A DNA stretch of 64,000 nucleotides from Gemmataceae bacterium (GTDB lineage Bacteria > Planctomycetota > Planctomycetia > Gemmatales > Gemmataceae), in assembly GCA_045802605.1 (NCBI GenBank), contig JBJMQS010000037.1:59420-123419 (forward strand). Reading direction: 5' to 3'. Under the pieces are notes generated by a model. The model ran no database searches and was not told where the DNA came from. It saw nothing but the letters and a program-made list of their open reading frames with translations. Positions 3,604 through 18,889 of this stretch are shown here, piece by piece (the first letter of the stretch is position 1; every line of letters starts with the position of its first letter). A program made the translations under genes and the position numbers.

Positions 3604-4191
3604 ATGATCCTCCTCATCGATAACTACGATTCGTTCGTTTACAACCTCGTTCAGGGGTTGGGCGCGATTGATCCGGCCACGCCGCTCGAGGTCGTGCGCA
3701 ATGACACGATCACGGCGGACGAGGTGGCGGCCAAACGGCCCACGCATTTGATTCTCTCGCCGGGGCCCTGCACGCCGAATGAGGCCGGCGTGTCGATGGA
3801 GTTGGTCAAGCGATTCGCGGGCGAGATTCCGATCCTCGGCGTGTGCCTGGGGCATCAGTGCATCGGGCAGGTGTTTGGGGGGCAAATTGTGCGGGCGGCG
3901 AAGGTGATGCACGGTAAGACATCGCCCGTGTTTCACAATGGCGAAGGGCTATTTGGCGGGATGAGTAATCCATTCACGGCGGCACGTTATCACAGTTTGA
4001 TTATCGACCGGGCGAGTTTCACGCATCCAGATTTCGAGATCACGGCCTGGACGGCCGAGGGTGAGATCATGGCGCTTCGCCACCGCGCGTGGCCGCTCTA
4101 TGGCGTGCAGTTTCACCCGGAGAGTTTTCTGACGGAGGAGGGGCCGAGCTTGTTGCGGAATTTTTTGGAGATGTGTAGCCGCGGGCTTTAG
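3604..4191 (+). CDS. trpG: Anthranilate/aminodeoxychorismate synthase component II (class I glutamine amidotransferase)
   Basis: GVCLGHQ catalytic Cys motif; YGVQFHPES His/Glu motif; ~195 aa, typical TrpG/PabA. Confidence 0.85.
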
Positions 4192-4245
4192 CCCGCGCGT
4201 CGTGGCAATCGCTTGGTCCCGACGCGGGCTGAAGCCCGCGGCTAC
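4175..4245. repeat. ~70-bp palindromic intergenic element, copy 1 of 2 (gtagccgcgggctttagcccgcgc...ggcaatcgcttggtcc...gcgggctgaagcccgcggctac)
   Basis: A near-identical copy lies at 18819-18889. The terminal arms are mutual reverse complements and each arm is also self-palindromic. It overlaps the last codons and stop of trpG and sits between convergent trpG and rplX. Confidence 0.7.
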
Positions 4246-4256
4246 AAAAATCGGAA

Positions 4257-4604
4257 TTATTTCTTTGCGAATTTCGGGTTGGCAGGGGCGACGCGGCTGA
4301 GGGTGGTGCCGGACTTCTTGGCAAACCGCTCCTTGGTGCCGTCGGCCGTGAAGCGGACGCCGGCGCGGGTCGGCTTGTTGCTGGTGGGGTCGATCAAAGC
4401 CACGTTGGAGACGTGGATCGGCATCTCTTTGGAGAGCCGGCCACCTTGTTGGCTTTGCCGGGAAGGCTTCAAGTGCTTGTAGACCTTGTTGACGCCTTCG
4501 ACGACGACTTTGCCAGTTTTGCTGAGGATACGGAGCACCCGGCCGCGTTTGCCTTTGTCGTCGCCTGTAAGTACCTGCACGATATCATCTTTGCGAATGT
4601 GCAT
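4257..4604 (-). CDS. rplX: 50S ribosomal protein L24-like (KOW domain), stand-alone
   Basis: KDDIVQVLTGDDKGKRGRVLRI...KVVVEGVNKVYKHLKPSRQSQQGGRLSKEMPIHVSNVALID matches the L24 family. It is not flanked by rplN/rplE. Confidence 0.7.
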   Translation of the reverse strand: MHIRKDDIVQVLTGDDKGKRGRVLRILSKTGKVVVEGVNKVYKHLKPSRQSQQGGRLSKEMPIHVSNVALIDPTSNKPTRAGVRFTADGTKERFAKKSGTTLSRVAPANPKFAKK

Positions 4605-18600: not shown

Positions 18601-18780
18601 GATCTGATTGCGCGATGGCGTCGGGAAGTCGGCATCGTCGGCCGTGCGGCGCTCGAAATAGGCGGTGGGCAAGGGCGGCAGCCCGTCGATCCGGCCCAAT
18701 ATCTGGTAGTAGCCGAAATAGAGCGCAGTGCACCCCGCGATGCCAACGAGTAACAGGACGAGTCGCCGCGGGGTCCACAC
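15610..18780 (-). CDS. Large (1056 aa) N-terminally membrane-anchored periplasmic protein with OstA/LptA-like beta-jellyroll-type repeats; candidate LptC/LptA-like LPS-transport bridge component
   Basis: Single N-terminal TM (LVLLLVGIAGCTALYFGYY). The C-terminal IFKADKITYNRSTGQFDGTNVISI resembles the LptA/OstA motif, and there are several G-x-V...GD-L-L segments. It lies immediately downstream of kdsD-kdsC, where lptC-lptA sit in proteobacteria. Confidence 0.4.
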   Translation of the reverse strand: MWTPRRLVLLLVGIAGCTALYFGYYQILGRIDGLPPLPTAYFERRTADDADFPTPSRNQIIDVKLQRAFGPQCEELRYNHRLELQKNGVILAMNQVTFEDGRCKLKPFSIAVVKERGLGVDPEVYTVHSDEAYLLFDQPVKNLAEMGKRKIVGCDLVSDPTLLSPDIRRHRVTCNHNRGTTDPNDDLILETTGPVAYRELPSPEPPPDKASPQIRTAAAVRLTDKRGQPHGTTVTAQGMDIYLMSAPSQPPPKTAVAKGKQVPKTGSVSGVSKVVLPADVTMNLWIDPKGGFLAAGQAQQPAAQAPGERSNVQITTPGAFIYNVGQEADLARFEMKPGDQQSPVQVVRPLVKDGVTFYDRLDCEVLEMQFAHPPQKPDGPQTNIAVKQDAESSLRWAHAWGKYIVLTSQAENLQAHGNDLFHDANTKLTTLKGTPEVTAIKEGHEIHAPQIVLSAPDAAGGQGATAEGEGYFRGQMTGEEGGEGGHTVIARWRDRMHYRKEGGLEQIHLAGAAGFEDLERKQSISGDQIKLTLAPEAVPSDRPAALGPGRSKPRRLEVTGSVTAKSPELKVHDTDVLVLLFQNAPVAKPSPEAPGVSVSTGGAPAPPGVIPLQTATQPKAQPAPPKPPLDLSATTIQANLLTRQSGPTELDDVHCEGHVRVHQDGANPQEKPVDMRGDALELVHKSDGHKLTLKGETERPAEMILPDIALLGPLIELDQVENRANVFGPGAMRILSTTDFQGNKLQKPTDLQVSWKEKMDFDGTLAEFYGHVQADQENTRLLCHHMQVTLDQRVRLGQQDPQANQNPSRAANVDKVICVTTGEDGAQPVSVEDSIREKDQLVRYQRIESRELAVFKKTGQLEAAGPGEVRILQPGPKNGGLSPLPDRGPALKTPPPPAEEEMKLTYVRYGSKLAVENEKRTAKFWRGVEVLHLPADDPGLRLNLNRLIDHLPKGALYMKCDVLEVYTEEANGKKTHIMIAKEKAKVQFDDVNGDADIIKYNEASQQVIFEGTRSRPAVLTKQVARGQKPQIFKADKITYNRSTGQFDGTNVISISE

Positions 18781-18818
18781 AGGAAATCCATCTCCAAAGC
18801 TTCGATGTCGCCTCTGAT

Positions 18819-18889
18819 GTAGCCGCGGGCTTTAGCCCGCGCTTACTGGCAATCGCTTGGTCCCGACGCGGGCTAAAGCCCGCGGCTAC
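18819..18889. repeat. ~70-bp palindromic element, copy 2 of 2 (see 4175-4245), intercistronic between kdsC and the large lpt-like gene
   Basis: gtagccgcgggctttagcccgcgcttactggcaatcgcttggtcccgacgcgggctaaagcccgcggctac is nearly identical to copy 1. Confidence 0.7.

Follow-up and report, generated by a model that had tools for sequence, protein, structure and literature searches.

Our analysis suggests that a conspicuous palindromic element of 73 nucleotides (nt), present in two copies in a 64-kb stretch of a Gemmataceae genome, is very probably a REPIN, that is, a pair of repetitive extragenic palindromic (REP) sequences in inverted orientation, each tagged with GTAG and with the GTAG on the outside, and that this doublet was probably moved by a REP-associated tyrosine transposase (RAYT). 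The stretch, which we refer to as the window, comprises the 64,000 nt at positions 59,420 to 123,419 of contig JBJMQS010000037.1, comes from a metagenome-assembled genome (MAG), and has a G+C content of 59.5%. The element belongs to a known kind, found here in a member of the Gemmataceae (Planctomycetota). We infer the enzymatic copying step from the family: a RAYT, a Y1 HUH enzyme of the IS200/IS605 superfamily presumably encoded elsewhere in the genome, would recognize the GTAG head together with the hairpin on single-stranded DNA and would cut and rejoin there, such that copying or moving the doublet leaves no target-site duplication. The genome would then hold a RAYT that matches this element, and the element may still be mobile.

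Architecture of the 73-nt element

The initial annotation placed two copies of a palindromic repeat at 4175-4245 and 18819-18889, differing by only a few substitutions, and both are indeed present, with the repeat extending one base further on each side (4174-4246 and 18818-18890) and the copies agreeing at 69 of 73 positions (95%). Of the four differences, three belong to the spacer and the fourth to the right arm's loop. The parts of the element are as follows.

4174-4246, no strand assigned: candidate REPIN copy 1, an HH dimer in which two GTAG REPs occupy the interval that separates trpG from the convergent rplX
4175-4197, plus strand: left REP arm of copy 1, GTAGCCGCGGGCTTTAGCCCGCG, from the motif search
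4198-4222, plus strand: 25-nt spacer of copy 1, CGTCGTGGCAATCGCTTGGTCCCGA, from alignment with copy 2 and with the element of a relative, L111
4223-4245, minus strand: right REP arm of copy 1, which reads GTAGCCGCGGGCTTCAGCCCGCG on the minus strand, from the motif search
18818-18890, no strand assigned: candidate REPIN copy 2, between cistrons of a minus-strand operon
18819-18841, plus strand: left REP arm of copy 2, from the motif search
18842-18866, plus strand: 25-nt spacer of copy 2, CTTACTGGCAATCGCTTGGTCCCGA
18867-18889, minus strand: right REP arm of copy 2, from the motif search

The layout is TGTAGCCGCGGGCTTTAGCCCGCG, a 25-nt spacer and CGCGGGCTRAAGCCCGCGGCTACA, with the right end reading CGCGGGCT[G/A]AAGCCCGCGGCTACA across both copies. 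As had been described for the two ends of the repeat, the 24-nt arms are reverse complements of each other, perfectly so in copy 2 and with one loop base off in copy 1 (96-100% complementary over both copies). All four arms have the form GTAG-C-CGCGGGC-TT[T/C]A-GCCCGCG, with a 7-bp stem and a 4-nt loop, and the two arms of each doublet in the window are of the same type, with the consensus GTAGCCGCGGGCTTYAGCCCGCG. The initial annotation further assigned a 10-nt self-palindrome to each end. Each arm does carry its own hairpin, but the 10-nt pairing joins the outer halves of both arms, and the stem within an arm is 7 bp long. Both of the folds that had been proposed, two short hairpins or one long one, were recovered by computation: the whole element, on either strand, forms a single long hairpin of -54 to -59 kcal/mol (z -7.9 to -9.0), the alternative with two small hairpins reaches -29.5 kcal/mol, and a single arm alone folds at -13.9 kcal/mol.

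The two copies sit in unrelated flanks, and their similarity ends at the borders of the element when they are aligned together with their flanks in both orientations. The borders read ...GATG/TGTAGC..GCTACA/AAAA in copy 1 and ...CTGA/TGTAGC..GCTACA/CTTA in copy 2, and no target-site duplication or direct border repeat is present at either copy. The spacers share the plus orientation and match at 22 of 25 positions. Because the spacer is kept between copies while the flanks are unrelated, the copied unit appears to be the doublet and not the single REP, in a small sample made up of the two copies and one more at the trpG site of a relative. Had the copies been part of a larger duplicated segment, the initial annotation would have given up the idea of an independent element; the unrelated flanks, and an arm that is found in multiple copies in many genomes, speak for its independence.

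With up to three mismatches allowed, the arm motif has nine matches in the window (eight from four arms read on both strands, plus one match with three mismatches) and a mean of 0.39 in shuffled windows, where 0 of 100 shuffles reached nine. That the repeat reflects chance similarity, or a false join made at a repeat during metagenome assembly, seems to us hardly credible. The window does come from a MAG, and in one MAG the REP stands at contig ends (L006, L026, L031, L064 and L094) and appears to break the assembly; against this stand the shuffles and two independent assemblies, of which L111 reproduces trpG, the element and the end of rplX, and L117 reproduces kdsC beside the same downstream gene.

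The REP unit in other genomes and beside RAYT genes

A scan of one genome per species with the pattern GTAGCCGCGGGC-NNNN-GCCCGCG matched more than 108 loci. Among the matches listed, the form with a TTYA loop occurs in 36 of 57 assemblies, often at several loci, with at least 18 loci and at least 34 units in an Urbifossiella MAG and at least nine REP loci in a MAG labelled Chlorobiaceae; also among these matches, the G+C content of the REP loci spans 39-72%, inverted doublets are frequent and single arms are common. At least seven REP loci were found in a Brevinematales MAG, at least six in a Gemmataceae MAG and at least six in the unclassified genome "SCN18". The partner arms of doublets often carry a different pairing stem (for example, CGCAGGC/GCCTGCG, CGCAAGC/GCTTGCG, CGCCGAC/GTCGGCG or CGCGCCC/GGGCGCG). 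Matches without the TTYA loop, mostly single, from high-GC Actinobacteria and others and in many cases coding-like, were left aside, being probably fortuitous or hairpins of other kinds.

Covariation was assessed on units anchored on the head and the loop only, with the 3' half of the stem left free. Four of the seven stem pairs change on both sides, and the compensatory stem variants are GGG/CCC, AGG/CCT, AAG/CTT, ACC/GGT, CGA/TCG and GCC/GGC. The observed cells with a double change number 27, compared to 6.7 in shuffles (0 of 500 reached 27), and 91.6% of cells pair, versus 27-52% when the partners are slid. The invariant parts of the REP are the head GTAGCCGC and the loop CTTYAG, while the three middle pairs of the stem vary by compensation. 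Because of these compensatory changes, the hairpin of the single arm is the conserved unit itself and not merely half of a long palindrome.

The link between this REP and RAYT genes was examined with a motif and phmmer screen of all open reading frames (ORFs) of the window and of the 108 REP loci listed. Two IS200-like genes were found, one in an Urbifossiella MAG (L049) and one in a Granulicella MAG (L080), and both are directly flanked by the REP: several units lie on both sides of the L049 gene, and the L080 gene has GTGTAGCCGCGGGCTTTAGCCCGCGG upstream and CGCGGGCTAAAGCCCGCGGCTAA downstream. Their proteins match Pfam Y1_Tnp (E-values of 6e-6 and 2.6e-9, respectively) and the NCBIfam model NF047646 for the REP-associated tyrosine transposase (cut-off 80 bits; the L049 protein barely passes with 80.8 and the L080 protein reaches 106.6), and carry HLHVIL or HLHLLL together with Y-I-x-x-NPVRA. 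The best match of the L080 protein in the PDB is 4ER8, the E. coli TnpA-REP (E = 1e-8), with the HUH and Y..NPV motifs aligned, and among the 135 homologues of the L049 protein many carry the label RayT at their source. Three more distinct RAYT loci, L112 (the same locus as L113), L114 (the same as L115, from an Omnitrophica MAG) and L116, are all flanked by units of the form GTAGCCGC-xxx-CTTYAG-x'x'x'-GCG, such that a REP or a stem variant of it directly adjoins the gene at five of the five distinct RAYT loci examined.

A conventional miniature inverted-repeat transposable element (MITE), that is, a miniature derivative of a DDE-type insertion sequence mobilized through its terminal inverted repeats, would likewise be short, non-coding and dispersed, with perfect 24-nt terminal inverted repeats. 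We nevertheless consider this origin highly improbable, since neither copy has a target-site duplication, each arm is a hairpin of its own kept by covariation, for which DDE-type terminal repeats have no need, the arms match repeats that stand beside Y1 (RAYT) genes and not beside DDE transposase genes, and single arms are common in other genomes.

Genomes ranging from 39 to 72% in G+C content carry the REP, and their phylum-level labels number at least 12 (Planctomycetota, Acidobacteriota, Omnitrophota, Patescibacteria, Spirochaetota, Chlorobi-type, Proteobacteria, Nitrospirota, Chloroflexota, Verrucomicrobiota, Armatimonadota and Methylomirabilota), a count that rests on many MAG labels and includes some assemblies with one REP match only. 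The prevailing view, drawn mostly from Proteobacteria, is that REPINs are lineage-specific and vertically inherited. That at least 12 phylum-level groups have one REP type and one RAYT clade in common, in almost unaltered form, is possible, though on balance we hold it to be doubtful; if true, whole REP/RAYT systems would have passed repeatedly from phylum to phylum, or else the RAYT recognition code would have been conserved to an extreme degree over long times.

Several further observations were made at loci that carry this REP or resemble it. Directly upstream of the REP that flanks the RAYT gene of L080 lies a tandem array of at least eight units of ~30 nt (CCGGTGTAACCGCAGGCTCTCTTG..., positions 1165-1400), which resemble REP heads (GTAACCGCAGGCT / GTAGCCGCGGGCT) that have no 3' stem half. 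Within the Brevinematales MAG (~40% GC; L006, L026, L031, L064, L074, L094 and L099), the same G+C-rich REP doublet is surrounded each time by one AT-rich sequence, CTAAATTAATAATTCTAAT..., at or close to the ends of contigs, and the assembly seems to be broken by a larger repeat of which the REP is a part. Two related IMG/VR contigs classed as viral hold one REP each at the same intergenic position between two large ORFs (L109, 10053-10075; L110, 7547-7569), and no RAYT was found in either contig. Finally, units with the same head and stem and with GNRA-like loops, GTAGCCGCGGGC-GCAA/GCGA/GAAA/GACA-GCCCGCGG, occur in Planctomycetota and other MAGs (L066, L084, L059, L091 and L029), often near repeats of the GCCGCGGAGCGGCG type; they may be a related but distinct hairpin family.

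The trpG and kdsC sites and other repeats of the window

The genes at the two sites are listed below, and the names given to them in the initial annotation (trpG, rplX, kdsC and lpt-like) are backed by Pfam.

3604-4191, plus strand: trpG, class-I glutamine amidotransferase (TrpG/PabA type), its 3' end remodelled by copy 1
4257-4604, minus strand: rplX, ribosomal protein L24, converging on trpG
15610-18780, minus strand: gene for a 1056-aa protein with an LptD_N/LptA domain (lpt-like), downstream of copy 2
18892-19416, minus strand: gene of the kdsC family, HAD phosphatase, upstream of copy 2, with its stop at 18892-18894
19413-20549, minus strand: gene for an SIS+CBS protein (KdsD/KpsF type)

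At the first site the overlap of copy 1 with the last codons of trpG, reported previously, is readily followed: the frame of trpG enters the left arm, which encodes the last five codons (C-S-R-G-L), and the stop is the TAG of the loop of that arm (4189-4191). Within genes, copy 1 overlaps these five codons and the stop of trpG only. TrpG homologues that do not have the element end in ...NF[LV]EM plus 0-3 residues. In the relative L111 (an ENA contig; protein P0002, 86% TrpG identity) the element stands at the same 3' site of trpG, at 621-693, and its TrpG likewise ends in ...CSRGL. The trpG-site element appears, from this comparison, to be one old insertion common to the window organism and its relative. 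The trpG coding sequences of the two are 85.1% identical, and 70.5% identical at third codon positions, whereas copy 1 and the L111 element, once the latter is reverse-complemented, are identical at 68 of 73 positions (binomial P = 2e-6 for so few differences in the element at the third-position rate). The slow evolution of the arms relative to synonymous sites fits constraint from recognition by a RAYT, homogenization among copies, or a function for the host.

The arms of copy 1 and of the L111 element are identical, and the L111 spacer is the reverse complement of that of copy 1 (22 of 25 positions agree, versus 6 of 25 when it is read directly). Since L111 also shares the state of copy 1 wherever the spacers of the two window copies differ (three positions), the comparison, although it offers few informative sites, favors a spacer that was flipped in place over a second independent insertion. 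The route would most simply be recombination or template switching between the 24-nt arms. A spacer that is reversed in one species relative to another, inside identical arms, raises the possibility that REPINs use these arms to invert their cores.

At the second site, copy 2 lies 1 nt past the kdsC stop and 37 nt ahead of the GTG start of the lpt-like gene at 18780, a start backed by the conserved N-terminus VWTPRRL; the copy is intercistronic between kdsC and the large lpt-like gene, as originally placed. The gap between kdsC and the next gene is 111 nt in the window, of which 73 nt are the element. In the three closest loci (74-76% KdsC identity) the same gap is 21, 48 and 32 nt, with the values at P0244 and P0243 taken from gene coordinates, and the loci are too diverged for a clean empty-site alignment. 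Because these junctions are too short for a 73-nt element, copy 2 reads as a lineage-specific insertion and not as a conserved feature of the operon.

The start of each copy coincides with a stop codon or is no more than 2 nt away from one, which makes side effects on the mRNA of trpG and of the kdsD-kdsC/lpt operon plausible. Once transcribed, a hairpin this stable (about -55 kcal/mol) should be a barrier to 3'-to-5' exonucleases, and either readthrough or the termination of translation may become less efficient; the trpG and kdsD-kdsC messages would then be stabilized and the downstream lpt-like gene partly uncoupled. In E. coli, transcribed REPs shield the upstream mRNA from 3' exonucleases, as in malE-malF, and where a REP stands within ~15 nt of a stop codon, ribosomes stall and translation is lowered. 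Any effect on mRNA is most simply a by-product of the insertion.

The initial annotation had suggested, from the place of copy 2, that the element acts in operon polarity or mRNA processing, and our results lend no support to such a dedicated function. No U-tract follows the hairpin at either copy on either strand, where the flanks are AAAAATCGG and CATCTCC for copy 1 and CTTAGG and TCAGAGG for copy 2, and the terminator scan reports no site there; a Rho-independent terminator was ruled out by this missing U-tract at both copies. Rfam, at gathering thresholds, gave no family in the window. With no U-tract and no Rfam match, the element belongs neither to the canonical terminators nor to any known RNA family. 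It is unlikely, in our judgment, that the element is a regulatory RNA of the host, kept by selection as an attenuator, terminator or processing site between cistrons that sets operon polarity. Such a role would agree with the very stable hairpin on either strand, the start of both copies at or near a stop codon, the arms, whose divergence between two species is below that of synonymous sites, and the place of copy 2 inside a co-directional operon. It is harder to reconcile with the junctions of the three nearest relatives, which have no room for copy 2, with the negative U-tract and Rfam results, and with the occurrence of the arm sequence in unrelated contexts in at least 12 phylum-level groups, flanking RAYT genes. 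Furthermore, the copies face opposite ways relative to transcription, copy 1 following a plus-strand gene and copy 2 a minus-strand gene, and the copy of the relative was flipped without a change in its arms.

We acknowledge that several results weigh against a REPIN moved by a RAYT. The motif and phmmer screen found no RAYT or Y1_Tnp ORF within the 64-kb window, where only two copies of the element are visible, and transposition by a RAYT is our extrapolation. The link of REP to RAYT rests on five distinct loci, and a RAYT was present in only 2 of the 108 REP-pattern loci listed, as expected if RAYTs are single-copy. The spacer of the element found nothing beyond chance by BLAST in the 108 REP-pattern genome loci listed, the spacer with the arm edge found no match in JGI metagenome contigs, and a metagenome scan for same-type doublets with a spacer of 20-30 nt gave two contigs with unrelated spacers; the sole further copy of this subfamily in those searches is that at the trpG site of the relative. 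Arms that change more slowly than synonymous sites would be compatible with a host function as well.

The window holds a number of other repeats, two of which adjoin the genes above. At 15492-15596, 14 nt past the stop of the lpt-like gene, lies a doublet palindrome of another kind, in which a 25-nt spacer separates inverted arms of 40 nt that match perfectly (TTCTTATCCCCTCCCTTTTAGGGAGGGGTAGGGGAGGGTG) and that each have their own CCCTCCC/GGGAGGG hairpin beside GTAG, and just upstream of trpG lies an inverted repeat with 64-nt arms (3409-3570, 88%). The only other GTAG-tagged perfect hairpin in the window is at 35207-35235, with GTAG on both sides (GTAG-GTCCCGCC-TGCCG-GGCGGGAC-CTAC). A perfect 54-nt palindrome at 56503-56556 starts with GGTTAGCCGCG, and its head resembles degenerate GTTAGCCGCGGGC units beside the RAYT gene of L049. 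A separate palindrome family of ~80-105 nt, made up of AACCGCAGAGnACGCAGAGAGCGCnGAGAAAACCAA and its complement, has at least four copies (9325-9403, 41633-41738, 43273-43356 and 53872-53968) and is probably the first palindromic family of the initial annotation. Inverted repeats with 48-nt arms are found at 1076-1177 (96%) and at 6949-7188, where the arms are 144 nt apart and contain GTAGCCACGGGTGGAGCG. Lastly, three tandem diverged repeats at 10277-13308, with a period of ~1.1-1.2 kb and 65-76% identity, correspond to paralogous minus-strand ORFs.

Relation to known systems

The REPIN, first described in Pseudomonas fluorescens SBW25, is defined in the account of Bertels & Rainey (2011, PMC3116915) as an inverted REP doublet that forms a hairpin. 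The element of the window resembles it in having two inverted REPs around a short spacer and one long hairpin for the whole element, in being non-coding, outside genes or at a gene edge and apparently present as dispersed copies, and in sharing its REP with sequences beside RAYT genes. Unlike the SBW25 REPINs, it resides in a Gemmataceae MAG and not in a gammaproteobacterium, has a different REP sequence (GTAGCCGCGGGCTTYAGCCCGCG), was seen as two copies in 64 kb, and in one copy enters a coding sequence and supplies its stop codon. The closest description is that of the GTAG-tagged REP superfamily, which occurs in eight phyla including the PVC (Planctomycetes-Verrucomicrobia-Chlamydiae) group (Di Nocera, De Gregorio & Rocco 2013, PMC3733652). 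According to that work, these REPs have an unpaired GTAG at one end, a short loop and a stem of 6-13 bp, mostly 6-9, and their sub-families differ by complementary stem changes; in HH dimers the GTAG is outside and the units are 20-100 bp apart. They prefer intergenic regions between convergent or same-direction genes, as well as sites immediately downstream of coding regions, and are occasionally intragenic, REP-flanked RAYT genes are termed REPtrons, and families are present in Planctomycetes and Verrucomicrobia, with some common to distant species (PMC3733652). The location of both copies fits this habit, with copy 1 between the convergent trpG and rplX and copy 2 between kdsC and the lpt-like gene in the same direction, and every feature of the window element fits the descriptions of GTAG REPs and HH dimers in the two papers (PMC3733652, PMC3116915). 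When the window REP was compared with the 24 numbered families of PMC3733652, through the text of the paper and not by consensus, no match was assigned, and the strings GTAGCC and Gemmata do not occur in that text. A full-text literature search with the arm sequence returned unrelated papers only.

The E. coli REPs and bacterial interspersed mosaic elements (BIMEs) share with the window element a GTAG head and a palindrome, imperfect in E. coli, and a homologous REP-linked transposase, TnpA-REP (a RAYT; PDB 4ER8). The mixed-type doublets of other genomes, for example a GGG-stem arm with an AGG-stem arm, are similar to the Y and Z types of BIMEs. Unlike in the E. coli elements, the arms in the window are of the same type, and the sequence is unrelated beyond GTAG.

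In summary, a conspicuous pair of palindromes would be explained as ordinary mobile DNA and not as a new regulatory device, and the Gemmataceae would be added to the hosts of GTAG-type REPINs. For annotation, the element carries a warning, as the C-terminus and the stop codon of this TrpG come from it. The insertion in the kdsD-kdsC-lpt operon offers a natural test of the effect of a REPIN on relative expression within an operon. If the sharing of one REP/RAYT code across phyla were to hold, it would provide a handle on how RAYTs read their targets and a test of movement between distant bacteria.

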